From: a virus
Taxonomy: Duplodnaviria; Caudoviricetes
DNA: 64,000 bases
Direction: 5' to 3' (one strand)
Virus record (IMG/VR): IMGVR_UViG_3300042483_000388
Shown here: positions 8,556 to 44,474 of the stretch, piece by piece
How positions within the stretch are numbered: the stretch's first letter is position 1
How the letters are laid out: each line of letters opens with the position of its first letter
The notes under the pieces: model-generated
Seen by the model: only the letters and a program-made list of their open reading frames with translations
Databases searched by the model: none
Told to the model about the DNA's origin: nothing
Translations under genes and position numbers: made by a program

Positions 8556-8999
8556 TTAATTAATAAATCTTTTTTTACTCTCACCATCATAGATTTTTTT
8601 TCTAAGGTTTGTTGTTGAGTAATTATGGTCACGTTTATTGTATATAATTCTAATCCCCCTCTTTTGACAAATACTTTTTCCCGTGTAGTCAATGTCTTTA
8701 TAATCCTCACCAATTATTCGGACATCTAAATCCAATGAACTAAAAAGTTCTTCTAACTCATCTTCAGTATTGTAGGGGATTATCTTATCAACATATTTAA
8801 CCGCATCCAATTGCAAGTATCTTTCTACAAGGGATTGGATTGGTTTATTTTTATCTTTTCTATCTATTGTAGGATCGTTCTGTAATGCACATATTAAATA
8901 ATCACAATGTTTTTTACATTCTTCTAACATAATGATATGTCCTGTATGTAGGAGATCAAAAGTACTACATGTTATTCCTACCGTTTTATTTTTTTCCAT
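8556..8999 (-). CDS. Cytidylyltransferase (TagD / glycerol-3-phosphate cytidylyltransferase-like)
   Basis: TCSTFDLLHTGH (HIGH motif), ERYLQL and RDHNYSTTNLR. Confidence 0.9.
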   Translation of the reverse strand: MEKNKTVGITCSTFDLLHTGHIIMLEECKKHCDYLICALQNDPTIDRKDKNKPIQSLVERYLQLDAVKYVDKIIPYNTEDELEELFSSLDLDVRIIGEDYKDIDYTGKSICQKRGIRIIYNKRDHNYSTTNLRKKIYDGESKKRFIN

Positions 9000-28640: not shown

Positions 28641-31004
28641 ATGGCGACTACTAAAATAGTTTTAAATAATCAATCCGATTTGGTTCTAACTGGACCTACT
28701 ATTAGTTTACCAATAGGTATTGTTAAATCCGACATCCCATCTTTGGTTCAGGATCTTATTGGTCTTGGTGCTGCTGATGCTGCTGAAGCGGTTTCTCGTG
28801 CAAATGGAGACGTTGCTCTTCAGGCCGCATTGACACTTGCCGAAAACACATTAAACGCTGCCATTGTTTCTGGTGATGCCGCAGTAACTTCTGCATTAAA
28901 CGCATACAAGACGTTAAATGATGCTGCTCTCGCTTCTGAAGTAAGTTCAAGAAGTGCTGGTGATATCTCATTACAATCAGCTATCAATGCTGAGACATCT
29001 CGTGCAACTGCCGCTGAAGGTGTATTAACCACAGATTTAGGGGCTGAGGTAACTCGTGCGACTAACGCTGAAGGTGTTCTACAATCAAACATCAATACTG
29101 AACAGGCAAGAGCTGAGGCCGCTGAATTGTCAAACGCAAATGCAATCTCTACTGAAACACTTTCAAGAATTGCTGATGTAAACGCTGAACAACTCCGAGC
29201 TGAAACTGCAGAAAACCAATTGTCTGCTGATTTATCTACTGAGTCTGCAAATAGAGTGGCTGGTGACAGCGACAACTTGGCGGCAATAAACTTGGAAAAA
29301 GGAAGAATTGATGCTATCCTATTGGCCTCTGACGCAAACAAAGACAGCTTTGCTGAAATCGTTTCCTTAATCAACTCTGTTGATACAACAAATGATCAGG
29401 CTTTCGCTTCTTACGTTCTTTCTAATGATGCCTCTTTGGCTTCTGAGGTAACCGCTCGTGAATTTGGTGATTCAACTTTAACATCTAACTTGAATTCTGA
29501 AGTAATTCGTGCAACTGCTGCTGAGGGTGTATTAACCACAAACTTGTCTGCTGAGGTAACTCGTGCAACTGCTGCTGAGAGTTCATTAAGAAGTGACTTA
29601 ACTTCTGAGACAAATAACAGAACTTCCGCTGACTTAATGATCACAACTAATCTAAATGGTGAAATTGCTGATCGTATTGCTGGTGATGCAACTTTAACAA
29701 CCGACTTGGGTGCTGAAGTATCTCGTGCAACCCTTGCTGAAGGTGTATTAAGATCTGATTTAGCTGATGAAGTACAAGATCGTATGGATGCTGTAAGTGC
29801 TGAAGCAACTGCAAGAATTGCAGGTGATTCAACTTTAACAACCAACTTGGCTTCTGAAGTATCTCGTGCAACTGCGGCTGAAGGAGTAATCTCTTCTAAC
29901 TTGTCTGCTGAGGTAATTCGTGCAACTGGTGCTGAAGGTGTATTAGGTGGTCGAATTGATTCTGAAATATCTCGTGCAACAGGTGCTGAAGGAGTATTAA
30001 CTACTGATTTGGCTAATGAAGTACAAGATCGTATGGATGCTGTAAGTTCTGAAGAAACTGCAAGAATCGCAGGTGATTCAACTTTAACAATGGGCTTGGC
30101 TTCTGAAGTATCTCGTGCAACTCTTGCTGAGAATCAAATAAAATCTGACTTGATTGCTGAAGAATCTCGTGCAACTCTTGCTGAGAATCAAATAAAATCT
30201 GACTTGATCGCTGAAGAATCTCGTGCAACTGCTGCTGAAGTTGTTTTACAAACAAACATTAACACGGAAAAAGGAAGAATCGACGCAATACTTGACGGAT
30301 CAACTGTTAATTTAGATCAATTCTCTGAAATCGTTGCTTTTGTTAATGGTATTGATTTAACTAATGATAGTGATCTTCTTACTGCGGTTACGAACATAAA
30401 CACTTCAATTACTGCTGAGGTAACTCGTGCTGAAGGTGCTGAAGGTATGTTAGACGGTAAAATTTCAACTGAAAAATCAAGAGCTGAGGCTGCTGAGTTA
30501 GTATTAACTAATAATTTATCAAGTGAAGTTTCTCGTGCAATGCTTGCTGAAGGTGCATTATCTAATAGAATCAATTCTGAAGAAGAAGCTCGTATTGCGG
30601 CTGATGGTTTATTAGACGGTAGAATTTCTAATATCCTATCAAACACAGACCTTACTGCGACAGATTCATTTTCTGAGGTGGTTTCCAAAGTTAACAACGG
30701 ATTGTCTAGTGTTAACGGTAATGCTGATCTTTTTGTAAAGGCAAACCGACCAAGTATGATTGGATTTGCAGATAGCCCTGACGGAATCAAAACTCAATTT
30801 GACGCAAGTGTTGAATTTGGTACTGAGATTGTATTCTTAAATGGTTTAATGCAATTGGCGGGTGTAGGATTAGACTATGAAGTAATATCTAAGCCTTCAG
30901 GTTTATCGATTACATGGTTTAGATCTCCTTCGTTAAGTGACAAAATCAATATATATGGCGTACCTTCTGGTACATCAATTGGTTCAGTTCCAACAATTGG
31001 ATAA
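28641..31004 (+). CDS. Long coiled-coil fibre protein with about 18-residue repeats
   Basis: Recurrent AEVTRATAAEGVLTTNLS units, three D-x-F-x-E-(I/V)-V knuckle-like motifs and a C-terminal FLNGLMQ..DY domain. Confidence 0.75.
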   Translation: MATTKIVLNNQSDLVLTGPTISLPIGIVKSDIPSLVQDLIGLGAADAAEAVSRANGDVALQAALTLAENTLNAAIVSGDAAVTSALNAYKTLNDAALASEVSSRSAGDISLQSAINAETSRATAAEGVLTTDLGAEVTRATNAEGVLQSNINTEQARAEAAELSNANAISTETLSRIADVNAEQLRAETAENQLSADLSTESANRVAGDSDNLAAINLEKGRIDAILLASDANKDSFAEIVSLINSVDTTNDQAFASYVLSNDASLASEVTAREFGDSTLTSNLNSEVIRATAAEGVLTTNLSAEVTRATAAESSLRSDLTSETNNRTSADLMITTNLNGEIADRIAGDATLTTDLGAEVSRATLAEGVLRSDLADEVQDRMDAVSAEATARIAGDSTLTTNLASEVSRATAAEGVISSNLSAEVIRATGAEGVLGGRIDSEISRATGAEGVLTTDLANEVQDRMDAVSSEETARIAGDSTLTMGLASEVSRATLAENQIKSDLIAEESRATLAENQIKSDLIAEESRATAAEVVLQTNINTEKGRIDAILDGSTVNLDQFSEIVAFVNGIDLTNDSDLLTAVTNINTSITAEVTRAEGAEGMLDGKISTEKSRAEAAELVLTNNLSSEVSRAMLAEGALSNRINSEEEARIAADGLLDGRISNILSNTDLTATDSFSEVVSKVNNGLSSVNGNADLFVKANRPSMIGFADSPDGIKTQFDASVEFGTEIVFLNGLMQLAGVGLDYEVISKPSGLSITWFRSPSLSDKINIYGVPSGTSIGSVPTIG
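29763..30230 (+). repeat. Recent internal duplications in the fibre gene
   Basis: 111-bp near-identical direct repeat (29763-29873 vs 30012-30122) and a 54-bp tandem repeat (units starting at 30111, 30165 and 30219). Confidence 0.85.
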
Positions 31005-31020
31005 TATCTAATGGTTTAAC

Positions 31021-31054
31021 AAAAAAAAGGGGACTCTTAGGAGTCCCTTTTTTT
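31021..31054. terminator. Bidirectional Rho-independent terminator
   Basis: A8-G-GGGACTC-ttag-GAGTCCC-T7 between convergent genes. Confidence 0.9.
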
Positions 31055-31738: not shown

Positions 31739-34700
31739 ATGCCAGTATATAATAGATTAACAGATAGGTCAAAAGTTTCGGCGGTTACGTTAAACGACAT
31801 TTTTCATGTTGTGGTTACTGGTGATACATCACAAAGTCCACAAGGTTCATCATATTATGCACCTTTAAGTGATTTACAAACAATATTAAGTGGGTCAACA
31901 GGACCAAGCGGTACCTCAGGTACAAGCGGAATAAATGGAACATCAGGGTCAAATGGAACTTCAGGAACAAATGGTACTAATGGAACTTCAGGAACAAATG
32001 GAACATCAGGAACCAATGGAACATCAGGAACCAATGGAACATCAGGAACCAATGGAACATCAGGAACCAATGGAACATCGGGTTCAAGTGGTACTAACGG
32101 AACGAATGGGACTAGCGGAACTTCAGGTACTTCAGGCACTAATGGTTCATCAGGTACTAATGGTTCATCAGGCACTAATGGTACGTCAGGCACTAATGGT
32201 TCATCAGGCACTAATGGTACGTCAGGTACTAATGGGACAAACGGAACATCAGGAACCTCTGGTTCAAGTGGGACATCAGGAACCTCGGGTTCAAGTGGTA
32301 CTAATGGTACGAGTGGGGTGAATGGTACTTCAGGTACTGACGGGACTTCTGGCACAAATGGTACGGACGGAACTAGTGGTACAAACGGAACAAGTGGAAC
32401 ATCTGGAACGAATGGAACGAATGGAACGAATGGGACAAGCGGCACAGATGGAACATCAGGAACAAATGGTACAAGCGGAACTAACGGAACTAGTGGTACA
32501 AACGGAACTTCAGGAACTAATGGAACTAATGGAACTAGTGGAACATCAGGGACAAACGGTACGAATGGAACATCAGGGACAAATGGTACTAGCGGTACCG
32601 ACGGAACATCAGGTACAAATGGAACTAGCGGTAGTTCAGGAACAAACGGAACATCAGGAACAAATGGAACTAGCGGTACTGATGGAACGAATGGCACATC
32701 GGGCACATCAGGAACTAATGGCACATCAGGAACTAATGGAACTAATGGGACAGATGGAACTAGTGGAACAAATGGGACTTCTGGAACTAATGGAACATCA
32801 GGGACTAATGGAACATCAGGGACTAATGGAACTAATGGAACTAATGGAACTAATGGGTCTTCGGGTTCAAGCGGAACTAATGGGACATCTGGTACTAACG
32901 GAACTTCGGGAACAGACGGAACTAGTGGAACTAATGGAACATCAGGATCAAGTGGTACAAATGGTACTAGCGGAACTAATGGGACTAGCGGAACTAATGG
33001 CACTAGCGGAACATCAGGATCAAGTGGTACGGACGGGACTTCAGGTACAAATGGAACTAGTGGAACTAACGGTACTTCGGGAACGGACGGGACTTCAGGT
33101 ACAAATGGAACTAGTGGAACTAACGGTACTTCGGGAACAGATGGGACATCAGGTACCAACGGAACATCAGGAACTAGCGGTACCGACGGAACATCAGGTA
33201 CAAATGGGACCAGCGGAACAAATGGAACTAGCGGTAGTTCAGGAACATCAGGAACAAACGGGACTTCAGGAACTAACGGAACATCAGGAACAAATGGTAC
33301 TGATGGTACATCGGGAACAAATGGGACTAGCGGTACTGATGGTACAAACGGAACTTCAGGAACAAATGGTACAAACGGAACTTCAGGGGCTAATGGATTT
33401 TCAACAGGTTTAGTTTATTATTTTAACCCTTCATCAGCATCTACAATTCCAACTTACTATGTTATGGATAGAAACATAGTGATAGGTGCCGGAACAACAT
33501 TAACTGCAACAGGGGGTGGAACACAACTAATAGGATCATTTTCAACAATTATTGGAGACCCTGGAATAACTACAATACCGTCAGGAAATTGGAACTTTGA
33601 GAATTACGTTGGTATGAGTTCCAATGGTGGTACTCCAAATTTATATGCTGATATATATATTAGAACAACAGGTGGTACTGAAACTTTAATTGGATCAAAT
33701 AGTGTATTACCCCACTCCATTACCGACGGTACGGTTGTGGAACTTTATTTATATTCGGTACCTGTATCCGCAACAACGGTAAATATTAATGATAGAATAG
33801 TCGTTAAGTTCTATGCAACCTCATTAGGTGGAAGAACAATGACTTGTTATTTTGAAGATGCGACAATTGCTCAGGTAACCACTTCATTATCACCATTTAT
33901 TGCGGGAACATCAGGTACAGATGGTACTTCAGGCACTAACGGTACTAGTGGTACAAATGGTACAAACGGAACTTCTGGGACTAATGGATCTAGCGGTACA
34001 AATGGAACTAACGGAACAAGTGGTACTAATGGAACCTCAGGAACTAATGGTACGGATGGTAGTTCGGGAACAAGCGGAACTTCAGGTTCATCAGGGACTA
34101 GTGGGACAAATGGAACAGATGGGTCTTCAGGTTCAAGCGGTAGCTCAGGCACTTCAGGATCTAATGGGTCTTCAGGAACAAGTGGTAGTAACGGAACAAA
34201 TGGAACGAATGGAACTTCAGGGACTAATGGAACAAACGGAACATCAGGGACTAATGGAACATCAGGAACAAATGGTACGAACGGGACTTCAGGTACAAAT
34301 GGAACTTCGGGAACAAATGGGACAAACGGAACATCAGGTACGAATGGTACTAGCGGTACTAGCGGAACTAACGGAACTAATGGAACTTCAGGTACAAATG
34401 GTACAAATGGTACGAGCGGGACCAACGGAACTTCAGGAACAAATGGTACAAATGGATCGTCAGGAACTAATGGAACTTCAGGTACAAACGGAACAAATGG
34501 AACTTCAGGTACTAATGGTACGAGCGGAACAAACGGAACAAGTGGATCATCACCTGCAGTACCAGGTTCAGATAATCAAGTTTTAACGTCAAACGGATCA
34601 GGAGGAATAGTTGCCGAATCTCTTTTAACATTTGATGGTACAAAATTAAGTGTATTGTATCAGGCTGGTGATGAAGGTGGGGAAATCCTATTAAACAAAC

Positions 34701-36910
34701 CTGTAACTAACACTACCATTTCAGGTACAGGGGTCACTTTTGACATATGGCAAGATAGAATTAGGTTTTTTGAACAAGGTGGTACTGCAAGAGGTGCGTT
34801 TCTTGACATAACCGCATGTGCTGCGGGTGTCGGTACAAATTTATTAACATCTGCCGGAACTTCAGGTACAAATGGAACTTCAGGAACGAATGGTACAAAC
34901 GGAACTTCAGGGACGAACGGTACTAATGGAACGTCGGGAACAAACGGTACGAATGGAACTAGCGGTACTAATGGAACATCAGGTACCAATGGAACAAATG
35001 GTACGTCGGGGACTAATGGAACATCAGGTACGAATGGGACTTCTGGAACTAGCGGAACTAATGGAACATCGGGAACTAACGGAACAAATGGTACTAGCGG
35101 AACAAACGGCACTAGCGGAACAAATGGAACTAATGGAACTTCAGGTACCAACGGCACTTCAGGAACAGATGGGACATCTGGTACTAACGGTACCAATGGA
35201 ACTTCAGGTACGGATGGAACTAGCGGAACATCAGGTACGGATGGAACTAGCGGAACATCAGGAACTAGTGGGGAAAACGGAATATCCGCAGGTCAAACAT
35301 ACTACTTCAATGAAAGTCAGAATAGTGATGTTTTAGGATATAAGGTATTATCAACAGAACCATCAACCGCATCAACACAAACAGTAACAACAAATTTATT
35401 AGGAATCCAACAAAACGTTTTAGTTTCTGATTACATAACACCACAATTAGGGTTTTCAGTTATTCCTGGTGGCGTACAAAGATTTCATTTACATTACTTA
35501 AAACCGGCAAGTAATGATGATATAGATGCATATGTTGAAATACAATTGGCAGATTCATCAGGAACAACTATAGGTCCAACAATAACTTCTAACATTTCAT
35601 TAATTGGTTGGGTTAGTGCGGTAATCCCTGTTGAAGTAAATGTAGATATAGTATTACCAACAACAACAATAGATCCAACAAATAGAATGATTGTTAGATT
35701 ATATTTGAGTAATAATGATGCAACGGCACATTCGGTGGTATATTATACTGAAGGTAATTCATATTATTCATTTGTTGTTACCTCAGTTGGCGCGATTGCC
35801 GGTACGTCAGGGACTTCAGGTACAAATGGAACCAGCGGTACTTCTGTTTCAGTTCCTGGATTAAACAATGAAGTTTTAACATCTGATGGATCAGGAGGTA
35901 TAGTTGCAGAAACTAATTTAATATTTAGTGGGTCACAATTATCCGTAACAGGTACGGTAGTAACTTATGGGTTTGCTCTTCCTAATATAGATACGTCAAC
36001 AGGATATTTAACCACATCAACACCTATGGTAACGTCTACTTCTATTGATTGGCTCAGTAGAATCGCCTATGATGTTTCTAGTACTTCAAGTATTAATTGG
36101 ACGAGTAGATATTTAACGGACTCATATCCTATTACTTCTGTTGATTGGGAAACTAAATATTTAAATGCGTATGACTTAACTACATCAGGGGCCACTCTTA
36201 GTGTTGATTGGAATTCTAGGTCATTATATTCATTTAGACCTCTTCCTATGCCAACTTCCACTCTTAGTGTGGATTGGCAGAATAGAACATTGAATGATAG
36301 TGGTGGTATTTCTTCAGTAGCATGGAGAGATCGCACCTTATACACACCTAATGGAACAACATCTTTAAATTGGACGGATGATACTTTTTTAGATTCAAAT
36401 GTTTATCAACGTGATTATAAATCTGCCGTTATACAAAACGCAGTATCAAATAACTATAACATTCCATATGGGTCATATTTAGGGGATGTAATTGAAGTAG
36501 ATGGTTCTACGACCTTTATGGATGCAGCAGTAACAGATGGAAATTTAGTTTATTTAGATACTAACGCCACTTGGTATCCTGTTAATCAAGCGGCAAGTGG
36601 GGCCACTTTCCTATTAGGTATTGCACATAACGTATATGCTCCTGGTGGAACAGGGTATGTTTTACTAGAAGGACATGTTGTAATTGATGATACATCATTC
36701 TCAGGACCAAATGTGCAAGGTGCGGATCATGGTTTACCAATATATATTAGAGATGGAACAACTCAGGGTCTTATGTCAACAGTCGTTCCTACTACGACTG
36801 GTGGACCAAATATAGTAAGAGTGTTAGGTCATTGTTACCAACAAAACTCAGGAACAGCAACACAATGGATGATGAAATTTAGACCATCAAATGATTGGAT
36901 AGAAATATAA
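31739..36910 (+). CDS. Collagen-like (Gly-X-Y) fibre protein, 1723 aa
   Basis: Four G-T-S/G-T-N/G-T-D/G-S-S tracts interleaved with duplicated globular domains, S(I/V)DW repeats and a C-terminal head domain. Confidence 0.85.
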   Translation: MPVYNRLTDRSKVSAVTLNDIFHVVVTGDTSQSPQGSSYYAPLSDLQTILSGSTGPSGTSGTSGINGTSGSNGTSGTNGTNGTSGTNGTSGTNGTSGTNGTSGTNGTSGTNGTSGSSGTNGTNGTSGTSGTSGTNGSSGTNGSSGTNGTSGTNGSSGTNGTSGTNGTNGTSGTSGSSGTSGTSGSSGTNGTSGVNGTSGTDGTSGTNGTDGTSGTNGTSGTSGTNGTNGTNGTSGTDGTSGTNGTSGTNGTSGTNGTSGTNGTNGTSGTSGTNGTNGTSGTNGTSGTDGTSGTNGTSGSSGTNGTSGTNGTSGTDGTNGTSGTSGTNGTSGTNGTNGTDGTSGTNGTSGTNGTSGTNGTSGTNGTNGTNGTNGSSGSSGTNGTSGTNGTSGTDGTSGTNGTSGSSGTNGTSGTNGTSGTNGTSGTSGSSGTDGTSGTNGTSGTNGTSGTDGTSGTNGTSGTNGTSGTDGTSGTNGTSGTSGTDGTSGTNGTSGTNGTSGSSGTSGTNGTSGTNGTSGTNGTDGTSGTNGTSGTDGTNGTSGTNGTNGTSGANGFSTGLVYYFNPSSASTIPTYYVMDRNIVIGAGTTLTATGGGTQLIGSFSTIIGDPGITTIPSGNWNFENYVGMSSNGGTPNLYADIYIRTTGGTETLIGSNSVLPHSITDGTVVELYLYSVPVSATTVNINDRIVVKFYATSLGGRTMTCYFEDATIAQVTTSLSPFIAGTSGTDGTSGTNGTSGTNGTNGTSGTNGSSGTNGTNGTSGTNGTSGTNGTDGSSGTSGTSGSSGTSGTNGTDGSSGSSGSSGTSGSNGSSGTSGSNGTNGTNGTSGTNGTNGTSGTNGTSGTNGTNGTSGTNGTSGTNGTNGTSGTNGTSGTSGTNGTNGTSGTNGTNGTSGTNGTSGTNGTNGSSGTNGTSGTNGTNGTSGTNGTSGTNGTSGSSPAVPGSDNQVLTSNGSGGIVAESLLTFDGTKLSVLYQAGDEGGEILLNKPVTNTTISGTGVTFDIWQDRIRFFEQGGTARGAFLDITACAAGVGTNLLTSAGTSGTNGTSGTNGTNGTSGTNGTNGTSGTNGTNGTSGTNGTSGTNGTNGTSGTNGTSGTNGTSGTSGTNGTSGTNGTNGTSGTNGTSGTNGTNGTSGTNGTSGTDGTSGTNGTNGTSGTDGTSGTSGTDGTSGTSGTSGENGISAGQTYYFNESQNSDVLGYKVLSTEPSTASTQTVTTNLLGIQQNVLVSDYITPQLGFSVIPGGVQRFHLHYLKPASNDDIDAYVEIQLADSSGTTIGPTITSNISLIGWVSAVIPVEVNVDIVLPTTTIDPTNRMIVRLYLSNNDATAHSVVYYTEGNSYYSFVVTSVGAIAGTSGTSGTNGTSGTSVSVPGLNNEVLTSDGSGGIVAETNLIFSGSQLSVTGTVVTYGFALPNIDTSTGYLTTSTPMVTSTSIDWLSRIAYDVSSTSSINWTSRYLTDSYPITSVDWETKYLNAYDLTTSGATLSVDWNSRSLYSFRPLPMPTSTLSVDWQNRTLNDSGGISSVAWRDRTLYTPNGTTSLNWTDDTFLDSNVYQRDYKSAVIQNAVSNNYNIPYGSYLGDVIEVDGSTTFMDAAVTDGNLVYLDTNATWYPVNQAASGATFLLGIAHNVYAPGGTGYVLLEGHVVIDDTSFSGPNVQGADHGLPIYIRDGTTQGLMSTVVPTTTGGPNIVRVLGHCYQQNSGTATQWMMKFRPSNDWIEI
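31892..33397 (+). repeat. Gly-X-Y coding repeat, tract 1 (9-bp periodicity)
   Basis: GGN-ACN-(TCA/AAT/AGC/GAT) units with synonymous variation; about 167 triplets estimated from tract length. Confidence 0.9.
33905..34546 (+). repeat. Gly-X-Y coding repeat, tract 2
   Basis: Same unit; about 71 triplets estimated from tract length. Confidence 0.9.
34856..35281 (+). repeat. Gly-X-Y coding repeat, tract 3
   Basis: Same unit; about 47 triplets estimated from tract length. Confidence 0.9.
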
Positions 36911-36911
36911 T

Positions 36912-37265
36912 ATGCCACCCCCATCAAGCAAAATATCAGGAATACCAGTAACATCCATAATTAATATGAAGAGTGTTAATGTAACATCTATTGTTTCAAT
37001 AGGTGGAGTATCTACATCAAATATTCCTGGATGGCCAAGTGGTAGTGGGTGCGAAACACTTATTTTAGGTTATGCTTCTGGTCCACCCCCTACACAGGCA
37101 TGTAGAAATAGAACAAATGAATACCAATTTGACTCTACTAATAGTATTTTATATGGTGTTGGAGAACCTTGCGGTGGCATACCAGCCCCTAACGGCTTTT
37201 ATTCTGATGGTAGGTCAATTTACACTTGGTTTGACGGAATATGGGGATTTGGGGGACCTTGTTAA
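36912..37265 (+). CDS. Small fibre-associated protein (117 aa)
   Basis: Starts 1 nt after the collagen-like gene; N-terminal KISGIPVTSIINM..SIVSIGGV repeat. Confidence 0.55.
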   Translation: MPPPSSKISGIPVTSIINMKSVNVTSIVSIGGVSTSNIPGWPSGSGCETLILGYASGPPPTQACRNRTNEYQFDSTNSILYGVGEPCGGIPAPNGFYSDGRSIYTWFDGIWGFGGPC

Positions 37266-37271
37266 TTTATA

Positions 37272-40196
37272 TTATCTGTTATCTATATAGATGATTACTT
37301 CACTATAGTATTCTATAAAATGATCATTCCATAGATCCCATTTAATATCTACACCATCTACGGAGAAAACTTGTATGTTATCAAATTGTGGAAAGATATT
37401 ATCTCTAAACCATCTGAACTTACATTTATGAAAACTATCATCATCTCTCATATGAAATTCCGTTACAATTTTTGGAATTGTTTTTAAAAACTCAATATTA
37501 CTTTGTTGGAACACATCGTATTCACCACCTTCACAATCACACTTTAAGAAATCTATTTTATCAATTCCGTTTTCATCTAAAAATTCTTTGAATGTAAATG
37601 TTGGAACACTCTCACTAACATTATCCCAAGTGATATGAATTTTCTTTTTATCTGTGATTGCCCCTTGAATAATTTTTACATTATCTTGACCAACATTTTT
37701 ATGAAGTATACCAACTTGGTATGATAATGGTTCCACAACATAACATTGTTTTGGATTCTTTGGTAAGATTTTATATGTGAACGGACCTAAGGACGCACCT
37801 AAATCAACAACAACATCACCTTCTTCAACTTCAAAATGTCTTTCATATGTATTATCTTCAAATATCTCTTTAATTGCAGCATCAACATACCAACCACTTT
37901 TTTTACCCCAGTCAAATTCAACCTCATCAAAATTTTCTTCCGTTACCCCTTCATTATTAATAATTCTATTTATTTGTTTAATTACCATATCAGAACTTAT
38001 TCGATTTGTACATTCAAACATTCGATCGGTATTTTTATGTAAAGGACACCAATTCCAGTCGCCAGCATCTAATCTTTCTGAATTAAAACATCCGTGACAA
38101 ACACTTTCATTAATAACTCTATATGTGTCTAAAGTTGTTTCTGCCCATTTCTCACTAAACCCTGAAATCAAAACAATAGGTAATTTACAAGCCCAAGCCA
38201 ACCAAGATAAACCAGACCCTAAACCAATAAAAAACTCACAACTTGATAGGTCATTAATAACTTCTTGTAGGTTTCCTCCTTTATAAATTGTTACGCCTTC
38301 AGGATAATGGTTACCCATATAGCCATCACCTTCTTTAGAATAGACCATGCATTCATATCCCAAATTATTAAGATGATCTATAACCGCTTGCCAAGCGTCA
38401 GGATTATTCCAATACTTTGCCTGTGCCGTAGAATGAAAACCAATACCCACTTTTTTCTTTTTAGGTGTGTTAGGTAATTTTAATAGTGGTCTAACTTCTT
38501 CATAATCTAAACCTAATATATCCGTTGCCGTTTTTTGTAATGGCATTTTTTTAAAATCAAATGGGTGTTTGTTTGCGTCAAATTTACCATCTTCATTATA
38601 AAACCAACCTAAATTATATTGTGCGTGTATGTTTGGTATTAATTCGCCAGGTTCAACAAACTCAATTTCAGGATACTGATCTTTAAACAAACTATTAAGG
38701 AATGTCGATACTATCGGTTTGCAACCATGTTTTTTTCTAAATACCTCACAATAAGGAACCCAAGCCATTGTATCACCTAATGATTTTGATCCGAATGAAA
38801 TATATACTCTCTTATCTTTTAGATCTAATGTCTCATCATAAATTACTTCACCATTTTCTTCAACTGTTGTTCTCCATTTAATGAAATATTCTTTATTTAA
38901 TTTAACCCAACTATTAATTGACAATTCATTTTGATATGATATTTCATTTTTATCATCATAATATTTAATATTCAATTTGTTTTCTGTGGTTCCTTGTATT
39001 TCAAAATAAGGTTGGGTAACATAATGTCTAACAAAGGTATAATCTTTGGTTAAAGGTTTGTTTTGGGTAATGTTTATATTTGTAACTGCGTTATAAAAAT
39101 TCAATAAATCTTCACCAAATGTATCATCAGGTAATATTTTATAAACGTCCTTATTTTCAATAAGTTCAACCAATTGTTTTGATATGTTTTTAACATCACC
39201 TTCTATTGGTGTTATATATCCGTCAAACATACCCATGTATTGTGGTAAATCTCTTGCAAGGATTTTCATTCCATAGTTGATTGATTCTCTAACAACCAAC
39301 GGATTACATTCCCAAGTTGAGTTAAACATTAAAACATCGCAAGCCGTCATGAATTTCTCAACGTCAGATCGTTCCCCCCATACTTTAACATTAGAAGGAA
39401 GGTCTTTCATAATAGGACCCCAATAGTCTTCAAAGTTTGGAGCTTGGTTCCCAATAAAATGAAATTCAATATCTGAGTTTGATTCAATTAATTCTTTTGC
39501 AACCTCAACACCTTCACCTTGATTTTTACCACTTGTCCATAACCCAACATTAAGTACGTGAGTTTTAAACATATCCAAACCAAGTTCATTTCTTACTTTA
39601 ATTTTTTCAATAAGTGGTACTTGATTAAAATCACCATAGATTTCATTCTCCTCTAAAATTTTAGTTACCTTATTCTCAATTGGGTATAACGATAAAAACT
39701 TAATTGGTGTTTCATTTAAAAACGTTTCCTTTAAATGATAAGGGGTAACAAAACAATATGCCTCAGGATTGAATTTTTTATGTGTTTGCGGATTAAACCA
39801 AACATTATGACAAGTCTCAACCATTTTCCAAGTCCTATCATTTGAATAAAGTTGATTTAACAATGGTAGCGGAATTTTATTAAAACTTTCAAACCCTTCA
39901 ACCATCTCTTCTGAATGGACAATATCAATATGATTGTTTTTAATAATATCAATTAACTCATATTTTCTTTTTGTGTTACTTGTATCCCCTAAACTAAAAA
40001 AATGACCTTCACCCAATATATCAATTATTTTATCTCGTTGAACAACATATGTATTACTAAACTGAGAATACTCAACCAAAAAGATTTCAATTTGGTCTTT
40101 GAATTTTTGAAGTTCTTGAATTCTTTTTAATACGAATTGGGGTTGTCCTCCAGTTGAAAGATGAGGTGTAAGATATAATAGTTTAATTTTTTTCAT
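37272..40196 (-). CDS. Three-domain protein: GT4-like + TibC/AAH-type protein O-heptosyltransferase + FkbM methyltransferase
   Basis: N-terminal YLTPHLSTGGQPQ..DVLMFNSTWECNPLVVRE; middle SLGDTMAW..FFIGLGSGLSWLAW..LISGFS..CHGCFN..CPLH..FEC; C-terminal VVVDLGASLG..VEP..IDFLKCDCEGGEY. Start taken at MKKIK (40196). Confidence 0.8.
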   Translation of the reverse strand: MKKIKLLYLTPHLSTGGQPQFVLKRIQELQKFKDQIEIFLVEYSQFSNTYVVQRDKIIDILGEGHFFSLGDTSNTKRKYELIDIIKNNHIDIVHSEEMVEGFESFNKIPLPLLNQLYSNDRTWKMVETCHNVWFNPQTHKKFNPEAYCFVTPYHLKETFLNETPIKFLSLYPIENKVTKILEENEIYGDFNQVPLIEKIKVRNELGLDMFKTHVLNVGLWTSGKNQGEGVEVAKELIESNSDIEFHFIGNQAPNFEDYWGPIMKDLPSNVKVWGERSDVEKFMTACDVLMFNSTWECNPLVVRESINYGMKILARDLPQYMGMFDGYITPIEGDVKNISKQLVELIENKDVYKILPDDTFGEDLLNFYNAVTNINITQNKPLTKDYTFVRHYVTQPYFEIQGTTENKLNIKYYDDKNEISYQNELSINSWVKLNKEYFIKWRTTVEENGEVIYDETLDLKDKRVYISFGSKSLGDTMAWVPYCEVFRKKHGCKPIVSTFLNSLFKDQYPEIEFVEPGELIPNIHAQYNLGWFYNEDGKFDANKHPFDFKKMPLQKTATDILGLDYEEVRPLLKLPNTPKKKKVGIGFHSTAQAKYWNNPDAWQAVIDHLNNLGYECMVYSKEGDGYMGNHYPEGVTIYKGGNLQEVINDLSSCEFFIGLGSGLSWLAWACKLPIVLISGFSEKWAETTLDTYRVINESVCHGCFNSERLDAGDWNWCPLHKNTDRMFECTNRISSDMVIKQINRIINNEGVTEENFDEVEFDWGKKSGWYVDAAIKEIFEDNTYERHFEVEEGDVVVDLGASLGPFTYKILPKNPKQCYVVEPLSYQVGILHKNVGQDNVKIIQGAITDKKKIHITWDNVSESVPTFTFKEFLDENGIDKIDFLKCDCEGGEYDVFQQSNIEFLKTIPKIVTEFHMRDDDSFHKCKFRWFRDNIFPQFDNIQVFSVDGVDIKWDLWNDHFIEYYSEVIIYIDNR

Positions 40197-40247
40197 ACTA
40201 TAAAAATAAAACATACATTTTAATTGTGAAGTTCATATCATTATAGA

Positions 40248-41195
40248 ATGAAAGATGTTTGTGTTGATGTGTTAGGATGTAGATCGTTAGGGGATACCTT
40301 AGCCGTTACACCAACTTTAAGAAAACTTTATAATTCTTACGGTAAAAAAATATCTGTCGCAACTCATCACCCCGAAATTTTTAAAAACAATCCTTACGTA
40401 GATAATATTTTTAATGAAATTACAGACGACATTAAAAATGATTATGAAGTATTTGAATCCTTTAATATTGGATACCACCCAAACGGTGTTTGTTATAAAC
40501 ATAACGCAATGGATATTAGACAATTTCATGCGGTTAATTTAGGGTTTATGTTGACCAGAGATGAAATGTCAATGGACTATTTTCCTGATGAGGTAGAATT
40601 AATTGAGGGGTTACCTGAAAAATATGTTTTAATTCACCCCGTTCAAAATTGGAATTCAAGAACATGGGATGAAAAAAAATGGCAAATGTTAACAAAACTC
40701 TTAAATGAAAGAGGTATTGCCGTTATTTCTGTTGGAAAAGATTCATCAGAACTTGGTGGTTCAAATGTGGATAAACCCGTTTTTAATTTTAATATTGATA
40801 TTGGTTTGAATTTAATGAACCAAACAACCTTATCTCAAACATGGTGGCTAATTAATAGTGCAATGTGTTTCATTACTATGGATTCAGGATTACTTCATTT
40901 AGCAGGAACAACAGACTCAGAAATAATCCAACTTGGAAGTTCAATACATCCTCAATTTAGAGCACCATATAGAAAAAATAATCAAGGTCATAAATACCAT
41001 TATGTTCTTGGTGGTTGTGGTTTACATTGTGCATCAGATATTAAATACGGAGTTAAAGAATGGAAATCAATACAAGGTATACCATCACTCGTTAATTGTT
41101 TAGAAAGAAAAGAAACATTTGAATGTCACCCCAACCCAATTATTATTTATAATAAAGTTTTGGAAATATTAGATTTAGAATATTTATGTAGATAA
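40248..41195 (+). CDS. GT9-like (heptosyltransferase-like) glycosyltransferase
   Basis: SLGDTLAVTPTLRKL, VLIHP, RTW, FITMDSGLLHLAG and a Cys-rich C-terminus. Confidence 0.85.
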   Translation: MKDVCVDVLGCRSLGDTLAVTPTLRKLYNSYGKKISVATHHPEIFKNNPYVDNIFNEITDDIKNDYEVFESFNIGYHPNGVCYKHNAMDIRQFHAVNLGFMLTRDEMSMDYFPDEVELIEGLPEKYVLIHPVQNWNSRTWDEKKWQMLTKLLNERGIAVISVGKDSSELGGSNVDKPVFNFNIDIGLNLMNQTTLSQTWWLINSAMCFITMDSGLLHLAGTTDSEIIQLGSSIHPQFRAPYRKNNQGHKYHYVLGGCGLHCASDIKYGVKEWKSIQGIPSLVNCLERKETFECHPNPIIIYNKVLEILDLEYLCR

Positions 41196-41565: not shown

Positions 41566-42810
41566 ATGAATACAATATTTATACAAATCGCCTCCTATCG
41601 TGATCCCCAACTTAGTTTAACAATCTCAGATTGCATTAAGAACTCTAAATACCCCAAAAATTTGGTATTTGGTATTTGTAATCAATATCACCCTGACGAT
41701 GAATTTAATATTGATGAATATCAGAATGACAAAAGATTTAGAATTGAAAATGTTTTATATTCAGATTCTAAAGGGGCTTGTTGGGCTCGTAACTTATTAC
41801 AACAAAGATATAGTGGAGAAACTTACACATTACAAATAGATTCTCATATGAGATTTTCTCCCGATTGGGACATTGAGATGATTAAAATGGTTAAACAACT
41901 TCAAAAGAAAGGACATAAAAAACCTTTATTAACGGGTTATGTTTCATCATTTGATCCCGAAAATGATCCACAGGGAAGAGTAAATGAACCATGGAGAATG
42001 TCTTTTGATAGATTTACACCTGAAGGTGTTGTGTTCTTTTTACCTGAGGTTATCCCTGGATGGAAAAAATTAAAAGAACCTATCCCTTCCAGATTCTATT
42101 CCGCACATTTTTGTTTTACATTGGGGCAATTTGTCAATGAAGTCCAACACGACAAAGATTATTATTTTCACGGAGAAGAAATTTCTATTGGCGTAAGATC
42201 CTTCACATATGGGTATGATTTATTTCATCCTCACAAAGTTTTAATTTGGCACGAATATACTCGAAAAAACAGAACAAAAAGTTGGGATGACGATAAAGAT
42301 TGGCATAAGAAAAACACAGCTTGTCATATAAAGAACAGACAACTTCTTGGTGTTGATGGAGAAGTTTATGATGGAGACTACTCACAATACTTTGGTAATG
42401 AAAGAACCATTAGAGATTACGAAAGATATTCCGGAATTTTATTTTCTAAAAGAGCTGTTCAACAAGATACTTTAGATAAGAAATACCCACCCAACGATTA
42501 CCCATATTCGTCCGAAACAGAATGGATTAATTCTTTTGCCACAATATTTAAACATTGTATAGACATAAATTTAAATAGTGTTCCAGAAACAGATTATGAT
42601 TTTTGGGTTGTTGCCTTCCATAACGCAAAAGATGAAACAATATATAGACAAGATGCTGACGCAAACGAAATTTTAAGAATAAAAAATGATCCCGATGGAT
42701 ATGGAAAAATATGGAGAGAGTTTAATGCAACCGAAATACCAAAATATTGGGTGGTATGGCCACACTCCATATCTAAAGACTGGTGTGAAAGAATAGTAGG
42801 TAATTTATGA
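41566..42810 (+). CDS. GT60/Gnt1-like polypeptide GlcNAc-transferase
   Basis: TIFIQIASYRDP, GACWARN, LQIDSHMRF (DxH), SAHFCF and FHGEEISIGVRSFTYGYDLFHP. Confidence 0.8.
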   Translation: MNTIFIQIASYRDPQLSLTISDCIKNSKYPKNLVFGICNQYHPDDEFNIDEYQNDKRFRIENVLYSDSKGACWARNLLQQRYSGETYTLQIDSHMRFSPDWDIEMIKMVKQLQKKGHKKPLLTGYVSSFDPENDPQGRVNEPWRMSFDRFTPEGVVFFLPEVIPGWKKLKEPIPSRFYSAHFCFTLGQFVNEVQHDKDYYFHGEEISIGVRSFTYGYDLFHPHKVLIWHEYTRKNRTKSWDDDKDWHKKNTACHIKNRQLLGVDGEVYDGDYSQYFGNERTIRDYERYSGILFSKRAVQQDTLDKKYPPNDYPYSSETEWINSFATIFKHCIDINLNSVPETDYDFWVVAFHNAKDETIYRQDADANEILRIKNDPDGYGKIWREFNATEIPKYWVVWPHSISKDWCERIVGNL

Positions 42811-44474
42811 TAACATTAGTAACGGGTTTATGGGACATAGGTAGAGGTGACCTTAGTGAAGGTTGGTCAAGATCGTACCAACATTATCTTAATAAGTTTG
42901 AGGACTTACTTAAGGTAGAGAACAATTTAATCATCTTTGGTGATGAGGAATTAGAAAAGTTTGTTAAAGAGAGACGACAAGACCACAACACCCAATTTAT
43001 TGTTAGAGACTTAACTTGGTTTAAAAATAATGAATTTTATAATCAAATACAATCAATAAGGACAAACCCAAAATGGTATAATCTTGCGGGGTGGTTAACG
43101 GACTCAACTCAAGCAAAATTGGAAATGTATAATCCATTGGTTATGTCAAAAATGTTTATCCTTCACGACGCTTTGCTCTTGGATAAGTTTGTCTCAGAAA
43201 AACTATATTGGATTGATGCTGGATTATCAAATACTGTTAATTTAGGTTATTTCACAAAAGACAATGTATTACCAAATATCGATAATCTTTTTGATAAGTT
43301 CACGTTTATTTGTTTTCCATATCAAGCCAACACAGAGATACACGGATTTGATATTAAACAAATGGATAAATACACTAGAGATAGAGTTGATAAAGTTTGT
43401 CGTGGAGGTTTCTTTGGTGGACCAATTGAGGACATAAGACAAATGAATACCTTGTATTATAATTTAATTAAAGATACATTATCAAAAGGTTTAATGGGAA
43501 CAGAAGAAAGTTTATTCTCAATTCTATTATATAACAACCCAACCTTAATTGATTATGTTGAAATAAATGGTGACGGATTATTGTATAAGTTTTTTGAAGA
43601 TGTTAAAAACAATGATGTAAAAATCAAAACAATTTCAAGACCGAACGAAGTTATTAAGAAAACAAATGGTGGTGTTGGTTTATATGTTATAACATTTAAC
43701 AGCCCAAAACAATTTGAAACCTTAATTAAAAGTATGTTAGATTATGATCCGGACTTTATTAATAAGACAAAGAAGTTTTTATTGGATAACTCCACAGACC
43801 TATCAACAACTCCGAGATATAAAGAATTGTGTGAAGAGTATAACTTTGAACATATTAAGAAAGATAATATAGGTATTACTGGTGGTAGAGTGTTTGTTGC
43901 CGAACATTTTGATGAAACTGATTTGGACTTTTATTTTTTCTACGAAGACGACATGCTATTTTATTCAAAACCAAACTCAAAATGTAAGAACGGATTTAGC
44001 AGAAATTGTGATAAATTATATGACAAAGCTCTTCATATTATGAAGAAAGAGGAATTAGATTTTCTCAAGTTAAACTTTACGGAATTTTTTGGTTCGCACG
44101 AAAAACAGTGGTCGTGGTATAACGTGAGCAATGAATTTAGAAAAGAACATTGGCCGTTTAATCAAAACTTGCCGGTGCAAGGTCAAGACCCAAACTCACC
44201 AAATTTAGAATTTAAAAACATTAAATCACATAATGGGTTATCATATGCGACTGGTGAAATCTTTTTAAGCAATTGGCCGATCGTGTTAAATAGAGACGGC
44301 AATTACAAATGTTATTTAGAAACAAAATTTGCCCATCCTCACGAACAAACGGTGATGAGTCAATGTTATCAAGAAACCGTTAAGGGTAGAGTTAAGTCGG
44401 CAGTTTTATTACTTACACCAACAGAACACAACCGTTTCGATTTTTATGAGGCACATTTGAGAAAAGAATGTTAA
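42807..44474 (+). CDS. HtrL/WlaTC-family glycosyltransferase fused to a second GT-A-like domain
   Basis: TLVTGLWDIGR, YWIDAG, RGGFFGG and MGTEESLFS in the first domain; FYEDDM in the second. Confidence 0.7.
   Translation: MITLVTGLWDIGRGDLSEGWSRSYQHYLNKFEDLLKVENNLIIFGDEELEKFVKERRQDHNTQFIVRDLTWFKNNEFYNQIQSIRTNPKWYNLAGWLTDSTQAKLEMYNPLVMSKMFILHDALLLDKFVSEKLYWIDAGLSNTVNLGYFTKDNVLPNIDNLFDKFTFICFPYQANTEIHGFDIKQMDKYTRDRVDKVCRGGFFGGPIEDIRQMNTLYYNLIKDTLSKGLMGTEESLFSILLYNNPTLIDYVEINGDGLLYKFFEDVKNNDVKIKTISRPNEVIKKTNGGVGLYVITFNSPKQFETLIKSMLDYDPDFINKTKKFLLDNSTDLSTTPRYKELCEEYNFEHIKKDNIGITGGRVFVAEHFDETDLDFYFFYEDDMLFYSKPNSKCKNGFSRNCDKLYDKALHIMKKEELDFLKLNFTEFFGSHEKQWSWYNVSNEFRKEHWPFNQNLPVQGQDPNSPNLEFKNIKSHNGLSYATGEIFLSNWPIVLNRDGNYKCYLETKFAHPHEQTVMSQCYQETVKGRVKSAVLLLTPTEHNRFDFYEAHLRKEC

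Follow-up and report, generated by a model that had tools for sequence, protein, structure and literature searches.

Candidate O-glycosylation of a collagen-like phage fiber by a TibC-like domain fused to GT4 and FkbM domains

The stretch of DNA analyzed here (64,000 nucleotides of IMG/VR virus record IMGVR_UViG_3300042483_000388, hereafter the window) is part of a large uncultured freshwater (lake) myophage. On its minus strand, at 37272..40214, lies a single intact open reading frame (ORF) of 980 residues for a predicted tri-domain glycan-building enzyme, which is convergent with the gene of a proline-free collagen-like fiber (31739..36910, plus strand, 1723 residues). The question raised by this locus is which reaction the enzyme carries out and whether the neighboring fiber is its acceptor. 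We propose, with moderate confidence in the scheme as a whole, that the fiber is O-glycosylated by the TibC-like middle domain of the enzyme, most likely with heptose, and that the resulting glycan is then extended and methylated.

The initial annotation had read the gene as a fusion of a family GT4 glycosyltransferase, a TibC/Aah-type domain and an FkbM methyltransferase, and this reading was borne out, with each of the three domains scoring above its Pfam or NCBIfam family cut-off and being modeled confidently. In the AlphaFold2 model of the protein (mean predicted local distance difference test (pLDDT) score 90.9, built on 61 homologs) they appear as a GT-B fold (residues 1-380), a beta-barrel with a GT-B fold (390-755) and a Rossmann methyltransferase (765-980). 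The single ORF is located where it had been placed, except that its former end at 40196 is the second ATG (Met7) and the frame reaches 40214. Since most homologs (975 residues) begin at the equivalent of Met7, either start is possible, and the alternative one would yield a protein of 974 residues. The middle domain, previously put at about 37960-39010, is predicted at residues 390-755 (37950..39047, minus strand), and the motifs quoted from it are all present (SLGDTMAW at residue 478, GLGSGLSWLAW at 664, LISGFS at 682, CHGC at 706, WCP at 722 and FEC at 733). The fusion enzyme is cytoplasmic.

By sequence, predicted fold and catalytic residues alike, the middle domain is of the TibC/Aah type (BAHT-like, GT9), with a beta-barrel (residues 392-462), catalytic lobes, a thumb and a four-Cys finger as its predicted sub-parts. 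TIGR04414 (hepto_Aah_TibC), the curated NCBIfam equivalog model for autotransporter strand-loop-strand O-heptosyltransferases, is matched at positions 31-374 of its 374 with an E of 3e-84, and the score of 283.1 bits exceeds the curated cut-off of 200. The TibC chains 4rap and 4rb4 (PDB 4RAP, 4RB4) were matched by sequence with an E of 7e-69, and a Foldseek comparison of the predicted structure with TibC gave an E of 1.6e-37 and a template modeling (TM) score of 0.85 by target over approximately 380-390 columns with 36-39% identity, the barrel included. In contrast, models of the lipopolysaccharide (LPS) heptosyltransferases reached no more than about 18 bits against cut-offs of 135-185, the best being TIGR02193 (heptosyltransferase I) with 18.1 bits against 185.3. 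With scores this far below the cut-offs, an identity as WaaC, WaaF or WaaQ (TIGR02193, TIGR02195, TIGR02201) was ruled out, and the grouping with LPS heptosyltransferases, which the initial annotation had set as the outcome speaking against itself, was not what we found.

Residues of known function in TibC were taken from PMC4358343 and mapped onto the domain via a HMMER alignment. Mutagenesis of TibC (Yao et al., eLife 2014; PMC4358343) found D110, T226, K230, W305 and the iron-finger Cys to be needed, and all of these have counterparts here. The catalytic base Asp110 corresponds to D481, the beta-phosphate ligands Thr226 and Lys230 to T596 and K600, the heptose O4 ligand Trp305 to W671, and the iron finger (1Fe-0S) of Cys339/342/358/370 to C706/709/723/735. 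The interface residue Phe368 is F733, and the thumb tip, Phe265/Val266 in TibC, is Y632/M633 and thus hydrophobic still. Asp, Lys and Trp of the catalytic and ligand set are invariant among 146 cluster representatives, and the four finger Cys are kept in approximately 95% of relatives, which points, from sequence only, to an iron finger. In TibC, the barrel, the thumb and the Cys4 finger bind the protein substrate and are absent from LPS heptosyltransferases, and a ring-shaped dodecamer assembles through thumb and finger contacts (PMC4358343). A two-copy complex prediction for residues 385-760 scored 0.01 and has no bearing either way on oligomerization. Two further positions read differently from TibC: Arg286, which forms a hydrogen bond to adenine N1, is Val652, and Pro300 (Ser in Aah), the selector between D,D- and L,D-heptose, is Gly666.

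The Ser/Thr-rich fiber said to lie next to the enzyme does exist, 879 of the 1723 residues of its ORF being in G-X-Y runs. There are four such runs (residues 52-555, 723-938, 1040-1183 and 1355-1369), separated by globular domains, as well as a unique C-terminal domain. The 879 residues consist mainly of Gly (293), Thr (262), Ser (173), Asn (125) and Asp (19), and include one Pro, one Glu and no Lys. Thr accounts for 89% of the X positions of the triplets, Ser for 50% and Asn for 42% of the Y positions, and T-S-G sites number 124. Nine related loci share the N-terminal 55 residues of the fiber, and none shares the C-terminal 330, as expected for a conserved anchor and a variable tip. The fiber also contains 125 N-G-[ST] sequons, the motif used by HMW1C-type cytoplasmic N-glycosyltransferases, because its G-T-N triplets precede G-T-S or G-T-N; no HMW1C-type N-glycosyltransferase was recognized in the window. 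In a 280-kb relative (L001:13610-16153), the collagen-like ORF ends in approximately 120 residues that correspond to the same repeat DNA in another frame, and is followed by a separate ORF of 233 residues; the change of frame stems either from misassembly of the repeat or from natural frameshifting.

The association between enzyme and fiber extends beyond the window. A collagen-like ORF was present within 10 kb of the enzyme gene in 48 of 79 related IMG/VR loci, with most of the others ending early on that side, and in approximately 14 of 20 non-redundant phage groups with full flanks. Almost everywhere in these phage collagen-like ORFs, position X is Thr or Ser and position Y is Ser, Asn or Asp, at enzyme identities of 42-94%, and a few distant loci differ. 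Bacterial relatives, at least 589 in number, were collected by scanning a single genome for each prokaryotic species. Domain sequences for a tree were taken from the window, from the phage loci and from the best 80 of these at least 589 bacterial loci (those closest to the phage profile); removal of sequences at least 90% identical left 91 rows, from which an unrooted maximum likelihood tree was calculated (IQ-TREE, LG+G4). A single branch with ultrafast bootstrap and SH-aLRT values of 100 each splits the 91 rows into 26 and 65. The 26 rows on the classical side come from Enterobacteriaceae, Burkholderiaceae, Oxalobacter, Lentisphaerota and Negativicutes and include a TibC ortholog (L134, 507 bits to 4rb4). 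All seven giant ORFs directly downstream of the enzyme gene are found on this side, and AIDA adhesin repeats are present in each of the four that were scanned, in two cases together with ESPR and AC_1. The 65 rows on the other side comprise all phages as well as Methylococcales, Bdellovibrionota, Bacteroidota, Ignavibacteriota and other metagenome-assembled genomes (MAGs). All 31 collagen-like neighbors and none of the autotransporters are on this phage side, and the neighbor label on the tree is explained by one change. No autotransporter was found in the window. The assignment to TibC/Aah in the initial annotation was therefore correct for the enzyme type and needs qualifying as to the clade, as the tree places the domain outside the TibC/Aah clade, in a sister clade with a different class of partner. 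It is not a plain TibC/Aah member, since Arg286, an autotransporter partner and a position in the classical clade are all missing.

Pairs of the same kind are also encoded by bacteria. On a 2.67-Mb Methylococcales contig, a stand-alone homolog of 375 residues adjoins a signal-peptide protein with a pure (GTS)n tract, and lgt, thyA, ppa and an alkaline phosphatase gene (phoA) surround the two genes. Like pairs with (GTS/GTT)n partners occur in other Methylococcales and in one Pseudobdellovibrionaceae MAG. The two-gene pairs in these two groups are exemplified by L092:7887-9981, which sits among housekeeping genes, L099:6781-9032 and L096:7854-11545; some of the MAG contigs are possibly mis-binned phage DNA. 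Because of these phage-independent pairs, and thus on the basis of gene association, we accept the fiber as the likely acceptor, and the link between the enzyme and the adjacent fiber, as first drawn from the window, gains a neighborhood that is conserved in phages and, independently, in bacteria. This distribution suggests that the phage-containing branch of the TibC family acts on proline-free Gly-Thr-Ser collagen-like proteins.

The two flanking domains would supply the remaining steps. The N-terminal one (39075..40193, minus strand, residues approximately 8-380) is a GT4-type GT-B glycosyltransferase. It matches Pfam Glycos_transf_1 (4.8e-8, 33.2 bits against a cut-off of 26.4) and Glyco_trans_1_4 (9.7e-8), carries an E-x7-E motif (E302/E310) and has the retaining GT4 enzymes BshA, PimB', MshA and WaaG as Foldseek matches (E approximately 1e-12); by fold and motif it is a member of the retaining glycosyltransferases of CAZy family GT4. 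The C-terminal domain (37275..37922, minus strand, residues 765-980) is, judged by its family matches, an S-adenosylmethionine (SAM)-dependent methyltransferase of the FkbM family (TIGR01444/PF05050). Its scores were 1.7e-15 (57.7 bits, cut-off 37.7) for TIGR01444, 7.8e-11 for Pfam Methyltransf_21 and 2e-7 for a PHROG methyltransferase, and a Rossmann SAM motif, VVDLGASLG, is present at residues 802-810.

From these features we infer an acceptor, a sugar, an order of three steps and a structural role for the product. During infection, the TibC-like domain would move a sugar from a nucleotide sugar to Ser, possibly Thr, of the Gly-Thr-Ser/Gly-Thr-Asn triplets, and the fiber would be glycosylated before its assembly into the virion. 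The first sugar, placed on Ser of T-S-G sites, would most likely be a manno-heptose and would probably be drawn from the LPS precursor pool of the host. A second sugar would be added by the fused GT4 domain, and the FkbM domain would O-methylate the glycan on a sugar hydroxyl, while the small GT9, GT60 and HtrL-like enzymes encoded nearby may add further sugars or start other glycans. As the fiber is without proline and without the Lys-Gly-Glu/Asp pairs that stabilize a helix, the glycans may stabilize or solubilize its triple helix and would in that case be structurally required, beyond decoration. A precedent is offered by (Gly-Pro-Thr)10, which is triple-helical only with glycosylated Thr (PMC11923368).

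A number of observations weigh against this scheme. Approximately 6 of the 20 non-redundant full-flank phage groups are without a collagen-like gene within 10 kb. Classical TibC recognizes a folded beta-helix and targets Ser, in N-S-G and T-S-A contexts, not Thr; some bacterial partners of the present clade are almost pure (GTT)n, for which reason Thr is perhaps used too. The GT60 enzyme of the neighboring cassette could be the real initiator, acting on Thr. Donor recognition differs from that of TibC, because Arg286 has become Val652 and is gone from all collagen-linked rows. This loss and the collagen-like neighbor provide two to three independent contrasts, too few for significance, so that we regard the loss of Arg286 as a clade character and not as a statistical correlation. 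On the supply side, GmhA was found in neither of two close relatives that are 99% complete (G001 and G006), G001, which was tested for all four heptose-pathway genes, holds the nucleotidyltransferase at most, and provision of nucleoside diphosphate (NDP)-heptose by the host is presumed.

These points bear most directly on the donor. That the sugar is a heptose we consider fairly probable, and adenosine diphosphate (ADP) as the donor nucleotide is uncertain. The contact between Arg286 and adenine N1 has been described as the basis of the specificity of TibC for ADP over guanosine diphosphate (GDP), and R286A is among the TibC mutants with activity abolished or largely diminished (PMC4358343). 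Arg occupies this position in 26 of 26 classical rows, in 9 of 65 phage-side rows and in none of the 31 collagen-linked rows, which have Val (20), Leu (4), Ile (3), Thr (3) or Ala (1) instead. The nine phage-side rows that keep Arg are early-branching; seven of them have full flanks without a collagen-like gene, and the flanks of the other two (L105, L118) are too short. The initial annotation had doubted ADP-heptose on the grounds that no heptose pathway is seen in the window. The doubt is retained, now on account of Val652, and its original reason is weak, since classical TibC, too, takes its donor from the LPS precursors of the host. In the window, GmhA, an HldE-type kinase and GmhB were all absent. 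Among 15 related IMG/VR records that were searched for the heptose pathway, two phages (G002 and G007) encode GmhA with 179-188 bits, which speaks for heptose, and a kinase of the HldE type (301 bits) as well as a nucleotidyltransferase are further encoded by G002. These genes are scattered (G002:C1:118794-119264, 39139-40074 and 317253-317645; G007:C1:88560-89015), and a search of five records for GmhB found none.

Of the rival explanations, the one that survives best leaves enzyme and fiber in place and replaces ADP-heptose by the heptose of cytidine diphosphate (CDP), uridine diphosphate (UDP) or GDP, or by a different sugar; we give it a lesser but appreciable chance. It is favored by the absence of the ADP-specificity Arg from this domain and its collagen-linked relatives and by the existence of CDP- and UDP-heptose, whose physiological roles are unknown, and of heptose-pathway enzymes of unknown purpose in viruses (PMC11573728). 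The GDP-sugar enzymes of the window also fit, as does a small nucleotidyltransferase (8556..8999, minus strand, 147 residues) located between PhoH and GDP-mannose 4,6-dehydratase, which is akin to RfaE domain II and to cytidylyltransferases. On the other hand, the heptose O4 Trp and the phosphate ligands are invariant, and the Arg contact itself has been called weak (PMC4358343). Moreover, the bacterial two-gene modules are without donor-synthesis genes and would need a common host metabolite, for which ADP-heptose is the obvious candidate in Gram-negatives. The nucleotidyltransferase of the window reads HNYSTT and is without the Arg of (F/L)xxGRSTT, the motif that marks promiscuous heptose nucleotidyltransferases (PMC11573728). 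It scored 81 bits with rfaE_dom_II (cut-off 181.5) versus 70 bits with glycerol-3-phosphate cytidylyltransferase, and the nearest solved structures are ethanolamine-phosphate and glycerol-3-phosphate cytidylyltransferases; being equally close to these, it was rejected as a heptose-pathway gene. A bolder version, which we find doubtful, would make the collagen-linked clade a distinct enzyme class that hyper-glycosylates Pro-free Gly-Thr-Ser triple helices from a non-adenine (CDP-/UDP-) heptose donor, with the sugar coat letting the fiber fold.

It is unlikely that the fiber is not the acceptor at all, with other virion or host proteins being glycosylated and the adjacency reflecting a clustering of late, structural and variable genes. 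Such a view could build on exceptions to the pairing (for example L048-50, L067-72 and L077-79), phages in which the fusion gene stands beside tail sheath or tube genes or other transferases and no collagen-like gene is present within 10 kb, as well as on the additional repeat-rich structural proteins of the window, e.g. the 787-residue protein at 28641-31004, and on Microcystis phage Mel-JY01, where the neighbor is a Ser-rich non-collagen 'structural protein'. However, the pairing recurs over enzyme identities of 42-94% and is found on bacterial chromosomes too, beyond phage gene order, and all collagen-like neighbors fall to the same side of a single branch with full support. Least probable is the assembly of a non-protein glycan (a lipid-linked oligosaccharide or a change to host LPS or capsule) with the GT9 domain adding heptose in the manner of WaaC/WaaF: this would suit the at least ten other glycosyltransferase genes and the GDP-sugar pathway genes in the window, GT9 being best known from LPS core synthesis, and the HtrL/YibB-like protein of the cassette, whose family has a gene in the LPS-core cluster of E. 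coli, but the LPS heptosyltransferase models stay at or near 18 bits where TIGR04414 reaches 283, the TibC-specific barrel, thumb and Cys4 finger are all kept, and the genes next to it showed neither a membrane segment nor a lipid-carrier enzyme. Glycosylation of the collagen-like fiber by the TibC-like domain is thus the reading that we carry forward.

The enzyme belongs to a large family. A word-indexed search returned 4,632 relatives of 539-1715 residues, many of which had already been labeled 'autotransporter strand-loop-strand O-heptosyltransferase' by the pipeline of the Joint Genome Institute (JGI). The best 120 of these 4,632 are 76-92% identical to the protein and mostly 973-990 residues long, with Pfam hits for GT4 in 111 and for FkbM in 118. 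When 1.84 billion cluster representatives were searched exhaustively with HMMER, 1,452 clusters (at 50% identity) were found at E <= 1e-3, 758 of them at E <= 1e-30, and the best 150 of the 1,452 are mostly multidomain proteins of 500-2000 residues. Among 61 representatives, the TibC-like domain is fused to GT4 in 31 and to a methyltransferase in 17 (FkbM 12, Methyltransf_24 3, TylF 1 and DUF6165 1). Isolated phages gave no match in a megablast search with the fusion gene, and a protein search matched only five records, namely Microcystis phage Mel-JY01 (48%), three uncultured phages of 636-735 kb and one FkbM-only match. PHROGs contains no family for the TibC-like domain or the fiber domains, and the literature searched, in which not all journals were covered, held nothing relevant on a phage TibC homolog, on the pairing of collagen-like proteins and heptosyltransferases or on Mel-JY01.

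Mel-JY01 (L002:3065-8430, PP395634.1) is a cultured cyanophage and a possible experimental system. It encodes a 1226-residue protein annotated only as 'methyltransferase FkbM', the last 350 residues of which share 48% identity with the TibC-like domain. The gene lies directly after that of the Ser-rich 'structural protein', and a 640-residue 'cytidylyltransferase like protein' is encoded 3 kb away.

On the far side of the fusion gene from the fiber, a conserved cassette contains further glycan-related genes. The first encodes a small GT9 paralog (40248..41195, plus strand, 315 residues) that is divergently transcribed from the fusion gene and matches Pfam Glyco_transf_9 with 3.5e-15. This protein has an SLGD motif and a Cys-rich C-terminus (CGLHC...NC...FEC), is without the beta-barrel, shares 24% identity with the TibC-like domain and weakly matches heptosyltransferases II/III and TIGR04414. 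It was detected by tblastn in 54 of the 79 related loci, as a separate upstream gene with 48-94% identity in 46 and on the TibC-like match itself in the remaining eight (23-24%), and could act on the glycan as a second heptosyltransferase. Other members of the cassette are an ORF of 99 residues, a GT60-type enzyme (41566..42810, plus strand; PF11397, Pfam GlcNAc 8.2e-65; in 26 of 79 loci) and an HtrL/YibB-like protein (42807..44474, plus strand, 555 residues; Pfam HtrL_YibB 7.6e-18; in 18 of 79 loci). We take PF11397 to be the GT60 family of Skp1 hydroxyproline and trypanosome mucin polypeptide N-acetylglucosamine (GlcNAc)-transferases, and the GT60-type enzyme is the second candidate initiator of protein O-glycans in the cassette. 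On the other side, a small ORF (36912..37265, plus strand, 117 residues) that follows the fiber gene had no family hit and is present in one of the 79 related loci.

Upstream of the fiber gene, the 787-residue protein at 28641-31004 has degenerate Ala/Ser/Thr-rich repeats (e.g. SRATAAEGVL) and phrog_13589 of unknown function as its sole match; it is probably another fiber. A strong bidirectional terminator-like hairpin was observed after this gene at 31023-31054. In the promoter and terminator scan, the signal was no better than in shuffled sequence. The window, with a G+C content of approximately 31%, also encodes structural and replication proteins of a phage (a 1117-residue tail sheath protein, a gp19-type tube protein, a T4-type baseplate protein, PolB, an SNF2 helicase and PhoH) and contains a long island of glycosyltransferase and GDP-sugar enzyme genes. 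Close relatives of the phage were found among IMG/VR and JGI contigs of 270-390 kb.

To our knowledge, Gram-negative autotransporter adhesins are the only proteins known to be O-heptosylated. Our analysis extends the enzyme family to a second, candidate substrate class, the collagen-like G-T-S proteins, and to tailed phages, in which it is abundant. It also puts forward a candidate mechanism, open to testing, by which uncultured jumbo phages may cover their fibers with sugar; a cover of this kind would matter for the recognition of hosts, for resistance to proteases and for adsorption in lakes. The bacterial two-gene modules represent a minimal phage-free test system, and the clade-specific loss of Arg286 is an experimental handle on donor specificity. 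A non-adenine heptose donor, if true, would be the first physiological role for CDP-/UDP-heptose and for viral heptose-pathway genes.

The combination described here appears to be new, being found in neither the mycobacteriophage nor the BclA precedent discussed below nor in the literature searched. With WaaC, WaaF and WaaQ, the TibC-like domain shares CAZy family GT9 and the GT-B fold, ADP-heptose donors being theirs; it differs from them in scoring at most 18 bits on their models and in possessing the barrel, the thumb and the Cys4 insert. The small GT9 protein at 40248-41195, in turn, resembles LPS core heptosyltransferases about as much as TibC. A parallel for the fiber is seen in Riftia cuticle collagen and in galactosylated (Gly-Pro-Thr)10, where sugar on Thr replaces hydroxyproline in stabilizing the helix (PMC11923368). 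Those collagens are animal or synthetic and have galactose on Y-position Thr, attached by unrelated enzymes, but they suggest why, on structural grounds, a glycosyltransferase would be paired with a Pro-free G-T-S fiber.

BclA of the Bacillus anthracis/cereus exosporium has a collagen-like region, O-linked oligosaccharides and methylated terminal sugars (PMC6222408, PMC7793302). The fiber resembles it as a prokaryotic collagen-like filament rich in Thr triplets, the heavy O-glycosylation and the O-methylated sugar being those of BclA. Its glycosylation was reportedly described by Daubenspeck in 2004. BclA has GPT-type triplets with proline, and its rhamnose/anthrose glycans are made by unrelated enzymes; we know of no GT9/TibC-type enzyme involved. 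Among phages, mycobacteriophage glycosyltransferases were shown experimentally to decorate the structural proteins of their own virions, according to the account of Freeman et al. 2023 given in PMC12619734. The glycosyltransferases are phage-encoded in both cases, here as predicted enzymes. As far as that account describes them, the mycobacteriophage enzymes belong to other transferase families and modify C-terminal tags of capsid and tail-tube subunits, unlike the hundreds of fiber repeats proposed as the target here.

The closest known systems are TibC of enterotoxigenic Escherichia coli (ETEC) and Aah of diffusely adhering E. coli (DAEC). The middle domain has the same predicted fold, including the barrel, the GT-B core and the beta-hairpin thumb as well as the four-Cys finger, and the same catalytic Asp and phosphate and heptose ligands, and in each case a cytoplasmic enzyme is encoded beside a gene for a long, Ser-rich, repetitive surface fiber. 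It differs from TibC and Aah in its place in a sister clade (100/100), in having a collagen-like G-T-S protein as partner where theirs is a beta-helical autotransporter of the AIDA type, in Val for Arg286 and Gly at the stereo-selector, in its fusion to GT4 and FkbM domains and in being phage-encoded.

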